Virus record (IMG/VR): IMGVR_UViG_2563366942_000011 | DNA: 18,053 nt | Origin: a virus | Lineage: Duplodnaviria; Heunggongvirae; Uroviricota; Caudoviricetes | Strand: one strand, 5' to 3' | In this document: in pieces, positions 1 through 8,063 of the stretch | Layout of the letters: every line of letters starts with the position of its first letter | Position numbering within the stretch: position 1 is the first letter of the stretch | Position numbers and translations under genes: made by a program | Notes under the pieces: model-generated | Told to the model about the DNA's origin: nothing | The model's input: the letters and a program-made list of their open reading frames with translations, nothing else | Databases searched by the model: none

Positions 1-1143
1 CTATGCTGTTTTGATATCTACGATAATCCAGTCTTTACCACGATCATCATTGTATCGGTCGGTCATTTTTCTGGATTTATGACCTAACAACTTTTGCGTA
101 TCCAGACCCTGTTCCCGATATAACCGTTCTGACAGAGATCGCTGCTCATGAAATGTGGGCGCAGTTCCTGGCTCCCATTTTATGCCACATTTTTCCCTGG
201 CCTTTTTAAAAGCCGTTGTAAGAGTATTTGCAGACACCTGGTCTCCTCTGTTTGCTTGAGAGGTAGTGTGACGGTAATGGACCAGATATTTACTAACAAC
301 AGCATCCCTGCACTGAGATATAACTTCACGAAGGGTAATATTCAGAGCATCGCATTTCAGGTTAAGCGGAATAGCAAGTTTTGAACCGGTTTTTTCCTGA
401 GTAATGTGCAACATGTCGTCCCAGATATCAGAGAATTTCAAATTGCAGATATCGCCTAAACGTTGTCCAGTGACAAGAGCAAGTAGCATCCCGCATTTTA
501 AATAGGGCTGCCGTCTGCTTACGCTGTCAAATATTGCCTGCCATTCGGGCAGTGATAATCTTTGGCGGTTTACTCGATTTCGCGGTTGTTTTGTTGCCTG
601 CGCTGGGTTAAATCCTGGCGGAACATGTCCTGCGTGTTGTGCTTCTTTGAAGACGTCGATCAACACCATTCTCACGACTTGCGCCATCCTGTTATGACCT
701 TCAGCCTTTACAGCATCAATTATTTCGGCAATATCAAGTGCGGTAATATCCTTGAGGTGTTGCATTCCACAATGCTCACGGAAAAGACGAATGGGTTTGC
801 CTTTTTGCCGATAGGAGTTGGGTCTTAGTTCATTATGTTGCAGCCTGTCCTCCTGGATAGAAATATATTTATCAAGCCATTCTGTCACCGTAATGTCTGA
901 GCGCCTGCCTTTCATTCTTTCTAGACGCTCATTGACGCTTAATATTTGTCGGGTACGTTGTTCAGCAATAATGGTATTTGCTTCAGTAGCAACTTGTTTT
1001 GCTTCATTCTCATCAGTTCCTAAGCTATGAAAACGACCGGATAGTGGATGTTTGTATTGCCAATATACCTTTCCGGTTCGCTTATCTAATTTGCAATATA
1101 AATTGGGTATAGAGATTTTGTGAGATCGGGGTCTAGCAGCCAT
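1..1143 (-). CDS. int: Phage integrase, tyrosine recombinase (lambda Int family)
   Basis: 380-aa ORF; C-terminal region (HEQRSLSERLYREQ...LLGHKSRKMTDRYNDDRGKDW) matches the lambda Int catalytic tail as I recall it; start ATG at 1143 overlaps the original xis 3' end. Confidence 0.95.
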   Translation of the reverse strand: MAARPRSHKISIPNLYCKLDKRTGKVYWQYKHPLSGRFHSLGTDENEAKQVATEANTIIAEQRTRQILSVNERLERMKGRRSDITVTEWLDKYISIQEDRLQHNELRPNSYRQKGKPIRLFREHCGMQHLKDITALDIAEIIDAVKAEGHNRMAQVVRMVLIDVFKEAQHAGHVPPGFNPAQATKQPRNRVNRQRLSLPEWQAIFDSVSRRQPYLKCGMLLALVTGQRLGDICNLKFSDIWDDMLHITQEKTGSKLAIPLNLKCDALNITLREVISQCRDAVVSKYLVHYRHTTSQANRGDQVSANTLTTAFKKAREKCGIKWEPGTAPTFHEQRSLSERLYREQGLDTQKLLGHKSRKMTDRYNDDRGKDWIIVDIKTA

Positions 1144-1209
1144 CAGCGATTATCCGTTGGAGTTTTGGGTTTGCGTTTATTGGGAGTTGCGGTTCTGCAA
1201 GCGTTCCTA

Positions 1210-1218
1210 CAAAACGGG
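1210..1218. repeat. IS1 target-site duplication, left copy (CAAAACGGG)
   Basis: Identical 9-mer at 1210-1218 and 1987-1995 directly flanking the IS1 ends. Confidence 0.95.
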
Positions 1219-1233
1219 GGTAATGACTCCAAC

Positions 1234-1737
1234 TTATTGATAGTGTTTTATGTTCAGATAATGCCCGATGACTTTGTCATGCAGCTCCACCGATTTTGAG
1301 AACGACAGCGACTTCCGTCCCAGCCGTGCCAGGTGCTGCCTCAGATTCAGGTTATGCCGCTCAATTCGCTGCGTATATCGCTTGCTGATTACGTGCAGCT
1401 TTCCCTTCAGGCGGGATTCATACAGCGGCCAGCCATCCGTCATCCATATCACCACGTCAAAGGGTGACAGCAGGCTCATAAGACGCCCCAGCGTCGCCAT
1501 AGTGCGTTCACCGAATACGTGCGCAACAACCGTCTTCCGGAGACTGTCATACGCGTAAAACAGCCAGCGCTGGCGCGATTTAGCCCCGACATAGCCCCAC
1601 TGTTCGTCCATTTCCGCGCAGACGATGACGTCACTGCCCGGCTGTATGCGCGAGGTTACCGACTGCGGCCTGAGTTTTTTAAGTGACGTAAAATCGTGTT
1701 GAGGCCAACGCCCATAATGCGGGCAGTTGCCCGGCAT
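1234..1737 (-). CDS. insB: IS1 InsB' frame (expressed as InsAB' transposase by -1 frameshift)
   Basis: 167-aa ORF matching IS1 InsB; overlaps insA in the -1 frame at the A6C slippery run. Confidence 0.93.
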
Positions 1738-1931
1738 CCAACGCCATTCATGGCCATATCAATGATTTTCTGGTGCGTACCGGGTTGAGAAGCAGTGTAA
1801 GTGAACTGCAGTTGCCATGTTTTACGGCAGTGAGAGCAGAGATAGCGCTGATGTCCGGCGGTGCTTTTGCCGTTACGCACCACCCCGTCAGTAGCTGAAC
1901 AGGAGGGACAGCTGATAGAAACAGAAGCCAC
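1656..1931 (-). CDS. insA: IS1 InsA (transposition inhibitor / N-terminal part of transposase)
   Basis: 91-aa [42 protein letters not shown]..., the InsA zinc-finger sequence. Confidence 0.95.
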
Positions 1932-1986
1932 TGGAGCACCTCAAAAACACCATCATACACTAAATCAGTAAGTTGGCAGCATCACC

Positions 1987-1995: not shown

Positions 1996-2285
1996 AATTT
2001 CGGTCAATCATCCAGTAGCGACCAACTTTTATAGCGGGTGGGGCCATCATTTTCCCTTGCGCGTATTTTTTCAGAACTCGCTCACTTGGTGCTAAGTCCC
2101 CAAATTCTTCTTTAGCCCAGTCCTGTAAAGTGATTAGTCGAGACATTTGTCCTCCTCTTAGCTGCTGAGGGAGTTTGTGACCGATATATCTGACATGATA
2201 TTAAGCTCATGGCAGGTACATCTCTTGACTGGTCATAGAGATAAATTTAATGCTGAGAAATGCAGTATTGAATTTATCAATTTTT

Positions 2286-2525
2286 CTATTTCCTGCGTAT
2301 GGCACGTAACTTCTTAATGTGTTCTGCTGTTTCGATCTCTTCAGCTATCCGATCTGCGTCAGCTTTATTCACAGGTTCAAAGTCATGATTAAAGCGGAAC
2401 ATGCTGGCGATACATGTTCTGCCTTTTCGGATGTAGTGAACTTTGTTGTGAGTGGAACGCAGGATTTTGCAGGGAGTGCCGTGGTGGTCGACGTACCAGG
2501 TGTTAGGGTAAATCACTCTGAACAT
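2286..2525 (-). CDS. Hypothetical small protein (79 aa) of the int-proximal accessory region
   Basis: ORF with ATG at 2525 preceded by an AAGG RBS; same strand as the pL operon; no family recognised. Confidence 0.6.
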   Translation of the reverse strand: MFRVIYPNTWYVDHHGTPCKILRSTHNKVHYIRKGRTCIASMFRFNHDFEPVNKADADRIAEEIETAEHIKKLRAIRRK

Positions 2526-2550
2526 TCTTGACCTTGTGTTGTGCGGATTG

Positions 2551-2835
2551 TTATTCAGTGCCGATATTTACCTTTATCGCGTATACCTTTACCGGTTTAT
2601 CACCGAAGTGCGGATGTGTGATTGTCTTCACTTCATATCCGTCATACGGAACATCAACTCTGCGGCTGGAATCGTCGCGCTTCGGATATCCCTTTGTGAT
2701 AATCAGGCGGTCATGCTTACGGTTAACGAGGCGCTTTTTCCAGTAGTCATTACACAGGCGATACTCTTCCGTTTTCTCTCCGCGAATCATGGCATCGAAG
2801 TATTCACCTTTAACGGCAAGTTGCAGGTTAGCCAC
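2551..2835 (-). CDS. ASCH/DUF3850-like small protein
   Basis: GTG start at 2835 six nt after AGGAG; N-terminal ...GEYFDAMIRGEKTEEYR... resembles the ASCH-type motif. The track ORF extends to 2919, but that extension overlaps the upstream gene. Confidence 0.55.
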   Translation of the reverse strand: MANLQLAVKGEYFDAMIRGEKTEEYRLCNDYWKKRLVNRKHDRLIITKGYPKRDDSSRRVDVPYDGYEVKTITHPHFGDKPVKVYAIKVNIGTE

Positions 2836-3568
2836 GGTTAACTCCTTGCTGTGTGGCGTCGAGTAATAAATCCCACAACCGCTGAGAGCAATTTCCGCAT
2901 GTACAGCGTTGACCCACAACGTTTATCGCGTTGCTGATTTCCGGCGTTACCTGTTTAGGAACCATAACCCAACCATCCGGAGTTACCGGAAGCGAGAACG
3001 GCAGCACATCTCTGTGAACAAGTTTTTGCTGTGACAGGTTATCCAGAACTTTCTGTACTGCTGCATCACCGAATACACCAAGCGCATCTGCCATAACTCC
3101 TACAACCTGATAAGCCTCAGCGCATACCGTGGATAAACCATCCGGAATTACCGGAGAGTTGCCGGGTTCTTTAATGTGCAAGCGAGGCTCACCATCTTTT
3201 GGCTCAGGCCACTGGCGCTCCATGTTGATCTTCAATTTATCTTCCATAGCAACGGTAATTTCAGCATCGCTGATGCCAGCACGGCGCTGTGCATCCCACA
3301 ACAGAAACTGCATATCAGCCCACTCGCTAAGATCGTCTGGTTCGGCTGCGGCTTCCAGTGCCTCTTTTGAGAGGTGTTTCAGTGGACCAATGGGGCCAAC
3401 GCAGCCAAATGTGGAGTCAGACCATTTGGCATGCTCGTGGCGAATCTGTTCGCGTTCCAGTGATGCCAGTGCAATTCGTGCTAGTTCCATTTGTTCGCCA
3501 CGAGTAAGCCCGTTTTCAAGCGGATTTTTAATGAACAATTCAATACGTTCTTTGGTAATAGTGGTCAT
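2828..3568 (-). CDS. Putative dATP/dGTP pyrophosphohydrolase-like protein (DUF550-type N-terminal domain) with C-terminal module
   Basis: 246-aa ORF; N-terminal MTTITKERIELF...GEQMELARIALASLEREQIRHEHAKW resembles the DUF550/MazG-like phage family as I recall it; ATGA overlap with the upstream gene. Confidence 0.65.
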   Translation of the reverse strand: MTTITKERIELFIKNPLENGLTRGEQMELARIALASLEREQIRHEHAKWSDSTFGCVGPIGPLKHLSKEALEAAAEPDDLSEWADMQFLLWDAQRRAGISDAEITVAMEDKLKINMERQWPEPKDGEPRLHIKEPGNSPVIPDGLSTVCAEAYQVVGVMADALGVFGDAAVQKVLDNLSQQKLVHRDVLPFSLPVTPDGWVMVPKQVTPEISNAINVVGQRCTCGNCSQRLWDLLLDATQQGVNRG

Positions 3569-3774
3569 GTGTTAATCCTCAAAACTTTATGCCCGGGCGC
3601 AAAAGTACGTGTTTTGTCTTTGCTTATTCGCCACCCGTCTTTACGGGCCTCTTTTGCACAACCAGACCATGACTTACCGATATACTCACCGAAGTCTGGC
3701 ACTGGATATACACCTTCCGTACACTGGCGACAATCACAATAGAGATGCATGGTGTAACTTGCGGCAATAGCCAT
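3565..3774 (-). CDS. Small Cys-rich protein (69 aa), putative zinc-binding
   Basis: ATG at 3774 lies 1 nt after the stop of the 202-aa ORF; product MAIAASYTMHLYCDCRQCTEG... with a CxC..C cluster; stop overlaps the next start (ATGA). Confidence 0.6.
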   Translation of the reverse strand: MAIAASYTMHLYCDCRQCTEGVYPVPDFGEYIGKSWSGCAKEARKDGWRISKDKTRTFAPGHKVLRINT

Positions 3775-3775
3775 A

Positions 3776-4384
3776 TCACTCTCTTTTTCCCTGAAGCATG
3801 GCAGCGTGGCAGGCATCCTCTACGCCCTTAACTGCATCTGCGCAGTAGTTATAGCGATTGCATTCCACTAACTTCTGCCTGAGATTTTCAATTGCTTGCG
3901 CGACATCAGCCTGTATTACAGGAACTGGCGGAACGGCTGTCTGCTGCTCTCGAACGTCATTAGTCGCTATCGGTTCTGCTGCCAACTGACTGGCATATTT
4001 GTTAATGGTAACGATAAGCTCTTGCTCAGCCTCATCCAGACAATCACCGATACCTCGCCTGTCGCCGTCAAAATCATCGAAATCAGCACGAACTCTGGCA
4101 AATTTCAGGATTGCGGACAACACCTCACCAGGAATTACCGGAGAGTTGGTTGACGTTTCCGAAATTTCCCGAAAATTATTGGTTGACGAATTCGCGTTTT
4201 CCCGAAAGTTTCCGGCATGAAGCATAGCCGCGCGGCAGGCGTTCCAGCCTCTCACCTCTGCAATAGCGGCAACAGCATCGACCGCGTACATGCTAAGAGG
4301 GTTAGGCATTGGTTTTTCTTCAGGTACTACTGGCACTGGCTTGGCATATATAGCGGCTGAACATACCAACCCTTTGATAACCAA
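3776..4384 (-). CDS. ea22-family modular protein, linker plus C-terminal module (start uncertain; possibly the frameshifted 3' part of one gene with 4327-4581)
   Basis: Frame opens at TTG 4384 straight after an in-frame stop; contains the linker AKPVPVVPEE and later NSPVIPGE; first ATG is at 4309 (MPNPLSMY...). Confidence 0.55.
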   Translation of the reverse strand: MVIKGLVCSAAIYAKPVPVVPEEKPMPNPLSMYAVDAVAAIAEVRGWNACRAAMLHAGNFRENANSSTNNFREISETSTNSPVIPGEVLSAILKFARVRADFDDFDGDRRGIGDCLDEAEQELIVTINKYASQLAAEPIATNDVREQQTAVPPVPVIQADVAQAIENLRQKLVECNRYNYCADAVKGVEDACHAAMLQGKRE

Positions 4385-4581
4385 CTGTCAGCAATGTTTT
4401 TACTCCTCGTTATTGCCGGAATACCTAAGCCATTGTCTGAATGCAGCCATGCCACCGGATTCTCTTCCAGCGATGCCAGAGCAATTTCATAAGCCCGGCG
4501 CTCAACATTGTCTCGCACATCCAAACTGCTGATACGCTCTTTGATTTCTTTAATCAGTTCTTTGTCGGTAAAAGTGCTCAT
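4327..4581 (-). CDS. ea22-family N-terminal module (85 aa), possibly the 5' part of a frameshifted gene
   Basis: ATG at 4581 lies 1 nt after the ea22-like stop; MSTFTDKELIKEIKERISSLDVRDNVERRAYEIALASLEENP...; overlaps the next frame by 58 nt. Confidence 0.5.
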   Translation of the reverse strand: MSTFTDKELIKEIKERISSLDVRDNVERRAYEIALASLEENPVAWLHSDNGLGIPAITRSKNIADSWLSKGWYVQPLYMPSQCQ

Positions 4582-4582
4582 A

Positions 4583-5347
4583 TCAATCTCCATTGGTATC
4601 AATGTTTACAGCCTGACAAGACTCTTTGAGCACCCAGTCAATAGCGTCTTTCCATGCCTCTGTTTCGACTGGTGGATTTTCACGCTTAACCTGTTCATAG
4701 AAGCGCACTGCTTTAACCAGTCCTTCCGGTACTACTGGTGATGGCTGTTTAGCTTCTAAATCAGCAATTCTGTCAACCACGGCATCGACAGCATCTGAAA
4801 AGCCGAACCAGTTGCTCCACTCCGGCTCATCCCCGGTTGCTGCAAAGTACATATCTGCTAAAGCAGATTCAGCATGGTCACGCTCGTTAATGAGTTGCTC
4901 TTCGCTTTTCTCCAGTTCAGCAATACGCTTACCCCCATCCGAGATAACACCTTCGTAATACTCACGCTGCTCGTTGAGTTTTGATTTTGTCTCCTCAAGC
5001 TCAACTCTCAGCTTCCCAACAGTAAGAGCAATATCCTCGTTCTCCTGGTCGCGGCGTTTTATGTATTGCTGGTTTCTTTCCCGTTCATCCAGCAGTGCCA
5101 GCACAGTAGCCGGATTGGCTGCGGCGATGAATTCAGCATTGGCCTGCTGTTCCATTTGGAAATCTTCATCGAAACCGCTTTCTGGATGCGCTCCTTCAAT
5201 TCTGCAAATGGGAATATATCCAGCAACTTCACGATGAATTAGCGCATAATCACCATCAAATCGGCTCTCTCCATATTCGAGCGACCACTCACCACACGTT
5301 GCTTTTTCTGCCGCTTCACGCAGTGCCTGATAGTTAATTTCGCTCAC
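4583..5347 (-). CDS. ea22: Ea22-like protein
   Basis: GTG start at 5347 overlapping the orf73 stop; product begins (V)SEINYQALREAAE and contains LLDERERNQQYIKRRDQENEDIALTVGKLRVELEE...NEQREYYEGVISDG, matching lambda Ea22 as recalled; divergent ends. Confidence 0.8.
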   Translation of the reverse strand: MSEINYQALREAAEKATCGEWSLEYGESRFDGDYALIHREVAGYIPICRIEGAHPESGFDEDFQMEQQANAEFIAAANPATVLALLDERERNQQYIKRRDQENEDIALTVGKLRVELEETKSKLNEQREYYEGVISDGGKRIAELEKSEEQLINERDHAESALADMYFAATGDEPEWSNWFGFSDAVDAVVDRIADLEAKQPSPVVPEGLVKAVRFYEQVKRENPPVETEAWKDAIDWVLKESCQAVNIDTNGD

Positions 5348-5565
5348 TTCGAACCTCTCTGTTTACTGATAAGCTCCAGATCCTCCTGGCAACTTGCACA
5401 AGTCCGACAACCCTGAACGACCAGGCGTCTTCGTTCATCTATGGGATCGCCACACTCACAACAATGAGTGGCGGATATAGTCTGGTAGTTCAGACGACGC
5501 ATTTTTATTGCTGTATTGCGCTGTAATTCTTCAATTTCTGATGCTGAATCAATGATGTCCGCCAT
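5344..5565 (-). CDS. orf73: DksA/TraR-family C4 zinc-finger protein (lambda Orf73-like)
   Basis: 73-aa ORF with CCECGDPIDERRR...CRTCASC, two CxxC pairs typical of TraR/DksA; same position as lambda orf73. Confidence 0.8.
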   Translation of the reverse strand: MADIIDSASEIEELQRNTAIKMRRLNYQTISATHCCECGDPIDERRRLVVQGCRTCASCQEDLELISKQRGSK

Positions 5566-5611
5566 CTTTCATTAATCCCTGAATTGTTGGTTAATACGCT
5601 TGAGGGTGAAT

Positions 5612-5641
5612 GCGAATAATAAAAAAGGAGCCTGTAGCTCC
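5612..5641 (-). terminator. Intrinsic terminator-like hairpin inside the pL operon (minus strand)
   Basis: Minus strand reads GGAGCTACAGGCTCC followed by TTTTTTATTATT; between the orf61-like gene and orf73. Confidence 0.5.
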
Positions 5642-5663
5642 CTGATGATTTTGCTTTTCATGT

Positions 5664-5945
5664 TCACCGTTCCTTAAAGACGCCGTTTAACATGCCGATC
5701 GCCAGGCTTAAATGAGTCGGTGTGAATCCCATCAGCGTTACCGTTTCGCGGTGCTTCTTTAGTACGCTACGGCAAATGTCATCGACGTTTTTATCCGGAA
5801 ACTGCTGTCTGGCTTTTTTGATTTCAGAATTAGCCTGACGGGCAATGCTGCGAAGGGCGTTTTCTTGCTGAGGTGTCACTGAACAAGCCCCATGTCGGCA
5901 AGCATAAGCACACAGAATATGAAGCCCGCTGCCAGAAAAATGCAT
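5664..5945 (-). CDS. Lambda orf61-like small protein (start uncertain)
   Basis: Open frame whose C-terminal two-thirds (VTPQQENALRSIARQANSEIKKARQQFPDK...GMLNGVFKER) is lambda-region-like; true start may be internal (GTG at VTPQQ). Confidence 0.6.
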   Translation of the reverse strand: MHFSGSGLHILCAYACRHGACSVTPQQENALRSIARQANSEIKKARQQFPDKNVDDICRSVLKKHRETVTLMGFTPTHLSLAIGMLNGVFKER

Positions 5946-6147: not shown

Positions 6148-6302
6148 ACCGCCTCCCGTTTATTATTTATCTTCTCAGCCAGCCGCTGTGCTTTCAGTGG
6201 ATTTCTGATAACAGAAAGGCCGGGAAATACCCAGCCTCGCTTTGTAACGGAGTAGACGAAAGTGATCGCGCCTACCCGGATATTATCGTGAGGATGCGTC
6301 AT
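6120..6302 (-). CDS. orf60a: Lambda Orf60a-like protein
   Basis: [43 protein letters not shown]...; ATG at 6302 overlaps the exo stop (ATGA). Confidence 0.8.
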
Positions 6303-6979
6303 CGCCATTGCTCCCCAAATACAAAACTAATTTCAGCCAGTGCCTCGTCCATTTTTTCGATGAACTCCGGCACCATCTCGTCAAAACTCGCCATGTACTT
6401 TTCATCCCGCTCAACCACGACATAATGCAGTCCTTCACGCTTCATACGCGGGTCATAGTTGGCAAAGTACCAGGCATCTTTTCGCGTCACCCACATGCTG
6501 TACTGCACCTGGGCCATGTAAGCCGATTTTATGGCCTCGAAACCACCGAGCCGGAACTTCATGAAATCCCGGGAGGTAAACGGGCATTTCAGCTCAAGGC
6601 CGTTGCCGTCACTGCATAAACCATCGGGAGAGCAGGCGGTGCGCATACTTTCGTCGCGATAGATGATCGGGGATTCAGTAACATTCACGCCGGAAGTAAA
6701 CTCAAACAGGGCTCTGGCGTCGTTCTCGTACTGTTTTCCCCAAGCCAGCGCCTTAGCGTTAACTTCCGGAGCCACACCGGTGCAAACCTCAGCAAGCAGG
6801 GTGTGGAAGTAGGACATTTTCATGTCAGGCCATTTCTTTCCGGAGCGGGGTTTTGCTATCACGTTGTGAACTTCTGAAGCGGTGATGACGCCGAGCCGTA
6901 ATTTGTGCCATGCATCATCCCCCTGTTCGACAGCTCTCACGTCGATCCCGGTACGCTGCAGGATAATGTCCGGTGTCAT
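6299..6979 (-). CDS. exo: Lambda exonuclease (Red alpha)
   Basis: 226-aa [68 protein letters not shown]..., matching lambda Exo as recalled. Confidence 0.97.
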
Positions 6980-7761
6980 GCTGCCACCTTCTGCTCAGTG
7001 GCTTTCTGTTTCAGGAATCCAAGAGCTTTCACTGCTTCGGTCTGTGTCAGTTCTGACGATGCGCGAATGTCGCGGCGAAATATCTGGGAACAGAGCGGCA
7101 ATAAGTCGTCATCCCATGTTTTATCCAGGGCGATCAGCAGAGTGTTAATCTCCTGCATGGTTTCATCGTTAACCGGAGTGATGTCGCGTTCCGGCTGACG
7201 TTCTGCAGTGTATGCGGTATTTTCGACAATGCGCTCGGCTTCATCCTTGTCATAGATACCAGCAAATCCGAAGGCGAGACGGGCACACTGAATCATGGCT
7301 TTATGCCGTAACATCCGTTTGGGATGCGACTGCCACGGCCCCGTGATTTCTCTGCCTTCGCGGGTTTTGAATGGTTCGCGGCGGCATTCATCCATCCACT
7401 CGGTAACGCAGATCGGATGATTGCGGTCTTTGCGGTAAATCCGGCATGTACATGATTCATTGTCCTGCTCAAAGTCCATACCATCAAACTGCTGGTTTTC
7501 ATTGATGATGCGGGACCAGCCATCAACGCCCACCACCGGAACAATGCCGTTCTGCTTATCAGGGAAGGCGTAAATTTCTTTCGTCCACGGATTAAGGCCG
7601 TACTGGTTGGCGACGATCAACAATGCGATGAACTGCGCATCGCTGGCATCACCTTTAAATGCCGTCTGGCGAAGAGTGGTGATCAGTTCCTGTGGGTCGA
7701 CAGAATCCATGCCGACACGTTCAGCCAGCTTCCCTGCCAGCGTTGCGAGTGCTGTACTCAT
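6976..7761 (-). CDS. bet: Single-strand annealing protein Bet (Red beta)
   Basis: 261-aa [69 protein letters not shown]..., matching lambda Bet almost residue-for-residue as recalled. Confidence 0.97.
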
Positions 7762-7766
7762 CCGTT

Positions 7767-8063
7767 TTATACCTCTGAATCAATATCAGCCTGATGGTGA
7801 GCAATGGTTTCAACTATGTACCGGATGTGTTCTGCCATGCGCTCCTGAAACTCAACATCGTCATCAAACGCACGGGTAATGGCTTTTTTGCTGGCCCCGT
7901 GGCGTTGTAAATGATCGATGCATAGCGATTCAAACAGGTGCTGGGGCAGGCCTTTTTCCATGTCGTCTGCCAGTTCTGCCTCTTTCTCTTCACGGGCGAT
8001 CTGCTGGTAGTGACGCGCCCAGCTCTGAGCCTCAAGACGATCCTGAATGTAATAAGCGTTCAT
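7767..8063 (-). CDS. gam: Gam, RecBCD inhibitor (short 98-aa form)
   Basis: [60 protein letters not shown]...; the upstream ATG at 8184 is in a different frame. Confidence 0.95.

Follow-up and report, generated by a model that had tools for sequence, protein, structure and literature searches.

The window analysed here is the whole of an 18,053-nucleotide (nt) stretch of viral DNA (Caudoviricetes; IMG/VR record IMGVR_UViG_2563366942_000011), which represents the left arm of an Escherichia coli lambdoid prophage. The sequence at positions 2500-5600 is also found, with 100% identity, in phage ev017 (NC_049948) and in PhiR57_1. In each of 82 complete E. coli genomes, at least one place covers at least 80% of window positions 2200-5800. 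Between xis/int and exo lies the ea region, the hypervariable early-left accessory region of the prophage, in which the relevant genes are all encoded on the minus strand. Several of these genes specify proteins made of successive modules, and short DNA segments encoding proline-containing linkers recur at the junctions between the modules. In the original prediction, which was made from the sequence of the window, these repeated segments were proposed to be plausible crossover points for the modular shuffling of this accessory block between lambdoid phages. The segments, their relatives in other genomes, and the likely origin of the gene arrangements around them are described here.

At the center of the repeat set is an 18-mer, GGAATTACCGGAGAGTTG, which has exactly two plus-strand copies in the window (3144-3161 and 4131-4148). 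The minus-strand product of each copy is NSPVIP, which forms part of an open reading frame (ORF) of 246 amino acids (aa; ...PGNSPVIPDGL...) in one case and of 202 aa (...STNSPVIPGEV...) in the other. The two-copy 18-mer had been correctly recognized beforehand, apart from a first copy placed at 3146-3163, 2 nt away from its actual position. The repeat extends beyond the 18-mer to an identity of 21/23 (3139-3161 versus 4126-4148). The three related versions reported with it, VTPDGW (here within SLPVTPDGW), AKPVPVVPEE, and PSPVVPEG, are likewise present, at coordinates that are slightly shifted (Table 1). Together, the five segments make up two DNA families and their variants. Linker L2, which encodes SLPVTPDGW, agrees with the consensus core of the first family at 21 of 27 positions when the sequences are compared, and the AKPVPVVPEE and PSPVVPEG segments are identical at 20 of 24 DNA positions. 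Additional repeated or proline-rich segments outside the earlier list are the 'IALASLE' motif, the 'ACRAAMLH/Q' motif, and the AVPPVPVIQ linker; the sequence AAMLQG forms the end of many modules that precede the core in other genomes.

That these repeats are a product of chance or base composition, devoid of biological meaning, can be dismissed with near certainty. The chance expectation for the 18-mer pair is 0.01, and two copies arose in none of 200 shuffles. Moreover, the 3.1-kb region is rich in short direct repeats, with four pairs matching at 20 or more of 24 positions as compared with 0.02 in shuffles, and 17 direct pairs matching at 17 or more of 23 positions as compared with 2.8 in shuffles (shuffle maximum, 7). 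The diverged copies (17/23) do fall individually within a range that shuffles sometimes reach, but the 18-mer, the closer pairs, and the in-frame presence of the repeat in at least 120 contigs refute a chance origin. The diverged copies are partly significant taken alone, and comparative sequence data confirm them as members of two recurrent linker families.

Table 1. Genes, linkers, and repeated motifs of the window in order of position.
Feature	Position	Strand	Details
int, lambda-type	1-1143	-	sole integrase of the window
IS1 insertion	about 1200-1960		between int and xis-like gene; insA and insB ORFs; Pfam IS1 transposase and InsA domains
xis-like ORF, DUF4222 gene, ASCH-like ORF	in this order after IS1 and before the 246-aa gene	-	
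246-aa multi-module protein gene	2828-3568	-	N-helix / DUF550 (dATP/dGTP pyrophosphohydrolase) / linker / middle module / linker / C-module
Linker L2	2969-2995	-	TCG CTT CCG GTA ACT CCG GAT GGT TGG (S-L-P-V-T-P-D-G-W); junction of middle module and C-terminal 'WVMVPKQVTPE' module
Middle module cassette (DGLSTVCAEAYQ...LPFSLPVTPDGW)	2969-3163	-	bounded by linker A and linker L2
Linker core copy A	3134-3163	-	GGC AAC TCT CCG GTA ATT CCG GAT GGT TTA (G-N-S-P-V-I-P-D-G-L); holds 18-mer; junction of DUF550 and middle module
'IALASLE' junction motif, copy 1	3455-3476	-	20/22 identical to copy 2
83-aa ORF	between 246-aa gene and 202-aa ORF	-	
202-aa ORF	3776-4384	-	
Proline-rich linker A-V-P-P-V-P-V-I-Q (PPVPVIQ)	3911-3937	-	in 202-aa ORF; one breakpoint inside
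Linker core copy B	4124-4150	-	ACC AAC TCT CCG GTA ATT CCT GGT GAG (T-N-S-P-V-I-P-G-E); in 202-aa ORF; holds 18-mer
'ACRAAMLH/Q' junction motif	4218-4240	-	20/23 identical to 3792-3814
AKPVPVVPEE linker, second family	4316-4345	-	GCC AAG CCA GTG CCA GTA GTA CCT GAA GAA
91-aa ORF	4327-4602	-	
'IALASLE' junction motif, copy 2	4465-4486	-	in 91-aa ORF
Ead/Ea22-like gene, 254 aa	4583-5347	-	with PSPVVPEG linker
PSPVVPEG linker, second family	4721-4744	-	CCA TCA CCA GTA GTA CCG GAA GGA; in Ead/Ea22 protein; precedes C-terminal 'LVKAVRFYEQ' module
TraR/DksA zinc-finger gene	between Ead/Ea22-like gene and recombination genes	-	
exo (YqaJ family), bet (RecT family), gam	6299-8063	-	phage's own recombination system; candidate catalyst of short-homology exchange

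The first linker family recurs widely outside the window. In a scan of IMG/VR for the exact 18-mer, whose loci were thus selected by the linker itself, the repeat was recovered from at least 120 viral contigs, where it is in frame, marks module junctions, and has dozens of unrelated sequences to its left and right. When the 150 nt on each side of 175 in-frame core occurrences were clustered by DNA, the core was found to join at least 55 upstream (N-side) clusters to at least 57 downstream (C-side) clusters, all unrelated, with a total of 115 combinations. For 20 pairs of upstream clusters, at least two downstream clusters are held in common, such that all four combinations are present (a four-gamete pattern), and the N-side cluster located upstream of copy B (N1) occurs with 13 different partners on the C-side. 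On the upstream side are DUF550, the window's NFRE repeat module, and modules that end in ...CRAAMLQG. Among the downstream modules are DUF551 (GWISCSERMPE...), a 'W..VP.EPT..M' family, the middle module (DGLSTVCAEAYQ...), the GEVLSAILKFARV module of the window, and others. A side observation concerns the DNA directly upstream of linker copy B, where positions 4146-4210 hold an imperfect 33-nt tandem duplication (4146-4177 and 4179-4210; 78% identical) encoding NFRENANSSTN and NFREISETSTN; this is the module with the most downstream partners.

DUF550 proteins provide an example of this combinatorial use, in that all four combinations of presence or absence of the middle cassette with a DUF551 or a W..VP tail are found. 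Most homologues of the 246-aa protein are 98-99% identical to it over 82% of the query, which by our estimate reaches about the PDGW residues, and then continue as DUF551. The C-terminal module of the window's own protein is a rare variant among these homologues. The Pfam DUF550 match ends at residue 137, and the core is placed after this end and before the start of DUF551 (GWISCSERMP), that is, at a functional module boundary. An AlphaFold2 model built from a 24-sequence alignment had a mean predicted local distance difference test (pLDDT) score of 37 and was unusable, except as a weak indication that the hinges lie in non-helical stretches.

Conservation of the core extends to its synonymous positions. 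A scan with AAYWSNCCNGTNATHCCNGANGG, which leaves synonymous positions free and thereby removes the bias of an exact-string search, returned 118 occurrences. Successive codons of the core are AAC in 113 of these, TCT in 113 of 115 serine codons, CCG in 111, ATT in 112, CCG in 103, GAT in 102, and GGT in 103; the valine codon alone is split, between GTA (60) and GTG (53). When two occurrences agree in an amino acid, they also agree in its codon at a rate of about 0.8-0.97 in the hinge (0.46 at the valine codon), as against 0.3-0.65 for most flanking codons, a few of which are higher. A conservation profile drawn from one representative per flank combination defines the conserved block as GGC AAC TCT CCG GTR ATT CCG GAT GGT TGG (GNSPVIPDGW). 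Information content is about 0 within 6 nt upstream and 3-6 nt downstream of this core. Furthermore, positions become associated with the upstream module no closer than -4 and with the downstream module no earlier than about +22 to +27. Whether the central valine codon is GTA or GTG shows no linkage to either flank (0.58, 0.53, 0.55), as would be expected if exchanges resolve on both sides of this polymorphism.

These features bear on the prevailing model of phage mosaicism, in which joints arise by illegitimate (homology-independent) recombination (PMC3233612; PMC2327257). Applied to the junctions described here, this model holds that joints form at random and that selection keeps those located at domain boundaries; the peptide would be needed as a flexible linker, and the identity of its DNA would be a by-product. 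Such an origin accommodates the breakpoints that fall at gene boundaries without an obvious repeat, as well as the different proline-rich linkers used by relatives of the PSPVVPEG junction. However, selection on the peptide cannot explain the near fixation of non-preferred codons, of which the TCT serine codon is an example. Random joints should also leave flanks of variable length, whereas conservation ends within a few nt across the 115 combinations, and the two sides of the hinge vary independently. Illegitimate joining is thus an unlikely source of these junctions. Because both sides vary, the edges of conservation are sharp, and the synonymous sites are fixed, exchange inside the hinge is preferred over random joints followed by selection.

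The core has a wide host range within the Enterobacterales. A 23-mer pattern in which the third positions of the Val, Pro, and Asp/Glu codons were left free was detected in 26 contigs from about 20 species, all of them Enterobacterales but one (Enterobacter, Klebsiella, Trabulsiella, Shimwellia, Hafnia, Brenneria, Erwinia, and others). The sole match from outside this order is in a contig of Chryseobacterium sp. 18061 (locus L196), where the peptide context is identical to that in Scandinavium hiltneri (locus L205); this match looks like assembly contamination or very recent transfer. An identical 28-30-mer is also present in isolated phages of Salmonella, Escherichia, and Klebsiella.

The second linker family has the DNA form CCA GCG CCG GTA GTG CCG GAx and encodes the peptide P(A/V/S)PVVP(D/E). 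In loci that were not selected for it, this peptide occurs in 34 distinct contexts with nearly fixed codons, mostly those of the form just given. Like the core, it is a connector of many partners: DUF550, Ea22, and numerous other modules precede it, and many modules follow it. The KPVPVVPEE and PSPVVPEG segments of the window are variant members of this family, and the module upstream of PSPVVPEG is joined to another C-module in locus L067.

The points at which similarity to other phages breaks off were located by a blastn comparison of window positions 2200-5800 with 190 IMG/VR loci, in which the ends of high-scoring segment pairs (HSPs) were counted. HSPs end at linker edges, namely at 2969 (17 ends), 2990 (7), 3134-3136 (14), 3163-3165 (5), 4146-4152 (6), 4339-4341 (9), and 4726-4730 (7), and also at the gene boundaries 2834-2846, 3568-3583, 3787, 4581, and 5346-5348. 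Seventeen loci that are 98-99% identical over DUF550 and the middle module stop exactly at 2969 and pass into DUF551, and the nine ends at 4339-4341 involve at least five different upstream modules. In locus L117, window positions 2969-3163 are matched at 100% identity, with ends exactly at both linkers and with different N- and C-terminal neighbors. The additional repeated motifs show similar behavior. At the first 'IALASLE' copy, HSPs end at 3455-3462 and at 3476, protein alignments reveal N-terminal swaps, and locus L024 jumps from window position 3476 to 4465, between the two copies of the motif. Low ends are located at 4218-4221 in the 'ACRAAMLH/Q' motif and at 3944, just outside the AVPPVPVIQ segment.

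A control sample was made up of 80 loci chosen solely for a near-identical exo gene and not for the linker. In these exo-anchored loci, all nine within-gene endpoints between 2828 and 4800 (2969, 3136, 3457, 3476, 3918, 4220, 4339, 4460, and 4746) lie in, or no more than 5 nt from, a short repeated or proline-rich segment. Half of the 16 endpoints in the same interval (8/16) fall in segments predefined from the repeats within the window (binomial P = 0.0016), and 4/16 fall in the five segments of the original prediction (P = 0.048). The low end in the 'ACRAAMLH/Q' motif is present in this sample as well, the low end at 3918 lies within the AVPPVPVIQ segment, and complete E. coli genomes, represented by a spread sample of the matches found, again have endpoints at 2969, 4220, about 4333, about 4460, and 4724. 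The proposal that the segments are crossover points is therefore supported, in that breakpoints coincide with them and each side of the core has many partners.

Two further observations were made on the orientation and content of these loci. All linker copies in the window, as well as 15/15 in the exo-anchored loci, are in direct orientation on the coding strand, and a shufflon or other invertible segment was rejected on this ground. In addition, Exo is 98-100% identical in 80/80 exo-anchored loci, and each ea-region module of the window is present in 1-10 of them; that each module is so restricted despite this identity of Exo shows fast turnover of the ea block relative to the neighboring recombination genes.

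Conserved in DNA, used in combination with many partners, and coincident with breakpoints, the hinges mark the in-frame crossover points at which phage protein domains are shuffled, and they are probably the crossover sites themselves. The repeated segments are the DNA for proline-rich interdomain hinges of the multi-module ea-region proteins, with both hinge families common, almost base for base, to very many Enterobacterales prophage genes whose flanks are dissimilar in DNA. In a cell that holds two phages or prophages, the 23-30 nt of hinge identity would be the only homology inside these genes, and a crossover in the hinge would produce a gene that has its N-terminal module from one parent and its C-terminal module from the other. 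As the hinge is always in the same frame, the product would be in frame and joined at a domain boundary. Repeated crossovers would give rise to the combinatorial architectures and at the same time homogenize the hinge DNA.

Such exchange may be catalyzed by the phage Red system (Exo/Bet), by RecA, or by both. Efficient pairing reportedly requires a segment of at least 23-27 bp with Red-beta and at least 31-34 bp with RecA (PMC3945230). The core is close in length to the Red-beta minimum, and Exo, Bet, and Gam are encoded in the window. Partners for exchange would be available, given that the places resembling this region number 2 per E. coli genome at the median and 12 at most. Relaxed, or homeologous, recombination is carried out by the Rad52-like proteins Red-beta, RecT, and Erf (Martinsohn 2008, PMC2327257; De Paepe 2014, PMC3945230). 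These recombinases offer an enzymology for short or diverged homology, and exo, bet, and gam are at hand in the window; however, the studies of them concern diverged homologous genes hundreds of bp long, whereas the hinge would present one isolated stretch of about 28 nt of homology, with unrelated sequences on both sides. We infer a homology-dependent step catalyzed by Red or RecA and, judging from the comparative sequence data, consider it fairly probable that crossover within shared hinge DNA produces the module combinations.

Several points weigh against this explanation. The mechanism would rest on comparison rather than on a direct parent-and-recombinant case. The E. coli locus H52 was considered as such a case and set aside, being a truncated prophage remnant that permits no clean comparison. 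Linkers of the form NSPVTPDGW were likewise considered as footprints of crossover between linker A and linker L2; only one T-to-C transition (ATT to ACT) separates these linkers from the core, and they are non-diagnostic. In length, the core is at the bottom of the range reported for pairing, and since GTA and GTG alleles share an uninterrupted identity of about 14-15 nt only, events must be rare. Many breakpoints coincide instead with gene boundaries or lie within the coiled coil of Ea22 (4900-5310). Two of the samples were selected by linker sequence, for which the exo-anchored and E. coli samples control only partly. Fixation of the synonymous sites could also reflect selection on a predicted hairpin or a recent single origin. 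Finally, PSPVVPEG had been put forward as a micro-homology junction, and this claim holds only in part: HSP ends do lie at 4726-4730, but relatives that share the downstream module carry PVPLTPEG, QPAPEG, or PVPVVSEG, so that their linker DNA differs and the break is at the edge of PEG. Micro-homology thus cannot explain every junction.

The hairpin just mentioned is specific to the main core. The 30-nt consensus is a quasi-palindrome that is predicted to fold as ..(((((.(((((.....))))).))))). (5+5 bp) with an energy of -14.1 kcal/mol, using RNA parameters only. This fold has a z of -3.8, none of 200 shuffles is equally stable, and only 260 of 73,728 synonymous recodings of GNSPVIPDGW (0.35%) fold as well. 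Each conserved third position of a codon has as its pairing partner the second position of a codon in the opposite arm, and the sole freely variable synonymous site is located in the loop. This contrast between stem and loop involves only three unpaired synonymous sites, and the core variants compared are not independent of each other. The predicted hairpin of the main core is an unexplained feature, a lead rather than a result.

Both the stability of this fold and the pairing of the conserved third positions are in keeping with a structured site, in which a hairpin of single-stranded DNA or mRNA would be acted on by a nuclease, a recombinase, or replication or translation pausing, and in which exchange would be targeted to structure, as at attC or in template switching. 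However, other linker types are junctions as well and have no unusual folding (percentiles of 10%, 11%, 55%, and 80%), the core is always in frame within a coding region, and the prediction has the limits given above. To our knowledge, no recombinase or nuclease gene travels with the core site. Structure-targeted exchange is accordingly quite unlikely. A bolder possibility, to which we also give little credence, is that the GNSPVIPDGW core is an evolved 'domain-shuffling joint', that is, a codon-fixed quasi-palindrome whose hairpin provokes exchange and which is kept by second-order selection. The hairpin would act via fork pausing and template switching, or else attract a structure-specific nuclease, and second-order selection would operate because phages recombine accessory or anti-host effector domains in frame. 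If this were true, the core would correspond, within protein-coding DNA, to the attC sites of integrons or to phase-compatible exon shuffling.

The attC sites of integrons are imperfect palindromes of 57-141 bp that lie at cassette boundaries, between genes. The main core is similar in being a quasi-palindrome. Unlike attC, it is about 27 nt in length, coding, and in frame, its cassettes are not arrayed, and the second linker family is without a significant hairpin. An integron origin was rejected in view of the 175 in-frame occurrences within genes, their short length, and the lambda-type Int that is the window's only integrase.

Boundary 'linker' sequences reportedly featured in the modular theory of lambdoid evolution of Susskind and Botstein in 1978 and again in the work of Clark et al. 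in 2001 on phage HK620. The literature frames two models of mosaicism, homologous exchange at conserved linkers and illegitimate joints combined with selection (PMC3233612; PMC2327257), and homologous exchange at short conserved boundary sequences is an old idea (PMC2327257 and PMC3233612, summarizing earlier work). Like the hinges, the lambdoid boundary linkers are short DNA sequences kept between differing modules, lie at module boundaries, and are proposed sites of homologous recombination. The core agrees with them in that it is conserved at the DNA level between non-homologous flanks, is positioned at module boundaries, and coincides with breakpoints. However, lambdoid boundary linkers lie between genes (PMC3233612), whereas the hinges lie within genes in a fixed frame. 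The hinges also connect at least 55 by 57 module types in several genera, and the unit exchanged is a protein domain, as opposed to a gene in the case of the lambdoid linkers.

DUF551 has been called a 'portable domain' in the Ea22 NMR paper, according to which DUF551 and Ea22 C-terminal domains occur in many protein contexts, and Ea22 variants have common N-terminal parts and different C-termini (PMC10834534). These two passages mention neither a conserved hinge nor conservation of hinge DNA, and the words linker, proline, and modular were not found in the paper. The repeats labeled 'arrangement c/d/e; region IV' in Stx phage records are Ea22/TraR duplications and were rejected as counterparts of the linkers. 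In the literature covered, which included few subscription papers, no description of an intragenic, codon-fixed hinge or of its combinatorial use was found. Linker-mediated modular exchange is already known; its intragenic, codon-fixed version at the level of protein domains has apparently not been described.

Polymorphic toxins contain demarcation motifs, VENN in CdiA and PxxxxDPxGL in Rhs, whose coding DNA is thought to provide homology for swaps of C-terminal cassettes. The resemblance to the hinges consists of a short conserved motif next to interchangeable C-terminal domains. However, polymorphic toxins have a constant N-terminal part, whereas the N-side is here as variable as the C-side, and the proteins in question are small, cytoplasmic-looking phage early proteins. 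A polymorphic-toxin identity was rejected because the N-side is variable, Pfam detected no toxin domains, and the downstream ea genes of the window have no recognizable immunity pairing; likewise, no secretion domain, toxin-immunity pair, or orphan cassette array was seen.

Whether phage genome mosaicism originates from exchange at conserved linkers or from random joints filtered by selection is a long-standing question. With the hinge, the linker model gains a concrete and widespread case that is open to experiment, at the level of protein domains and not of genes. The core can be recoded synonymously in ways that separate the contributions of peptide, DNA identity, and hairpin, which makes the debate directly testable. 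In practical terms, annotation and clustering of ea- and nin-region proteins (DUF550, DUF551, Ead/Ea22, and many unnamed modules) should treat hinges as domain boundaries, and the hinge could serve as a natural in-frame joint for recombineering.

Other features of the window concern the genes that carry the linkers. The 91-aa and 202-aa ORFs overlap (4327-4384) in different frames, with a TATATAT run at about 4346-4353, and the AKPVPVVPEE segment lies just downstream of this frame break, where the N-terminal module of the 91-aa ORF and the 202-aa ORF are in different frames. In locus L067, GWYVQPLYIAKPVPVVP is read in a single frame thanks to one extra base (CTATACATAGCC versus CTATATATGCC), and in protein P0006 the N-terminal and AVDAVAAIAEVRG modules are part of one protein, joined by the related linker PMPVVPEE. 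From these comparisons, positions 3776-4602 seem to be a single multi-module gene split by a 1-nt frameshift near 4346-4353, a condition shared with ev017 and PhiR57_1. Many E. coli prophages that are otherwise identical match the window over just 96% of its length, in keeping with an absence of IS1 from them. At the 3ʹ end of the 246-aa gene (2828-2846), unrelated C-terminal modules share the ending ...(PLPEPPQE)VNRG-stop, and HSP ends cluster at 2834-2846, which suggests a further conserved boundary segment at the end of this gene and the start of the next.

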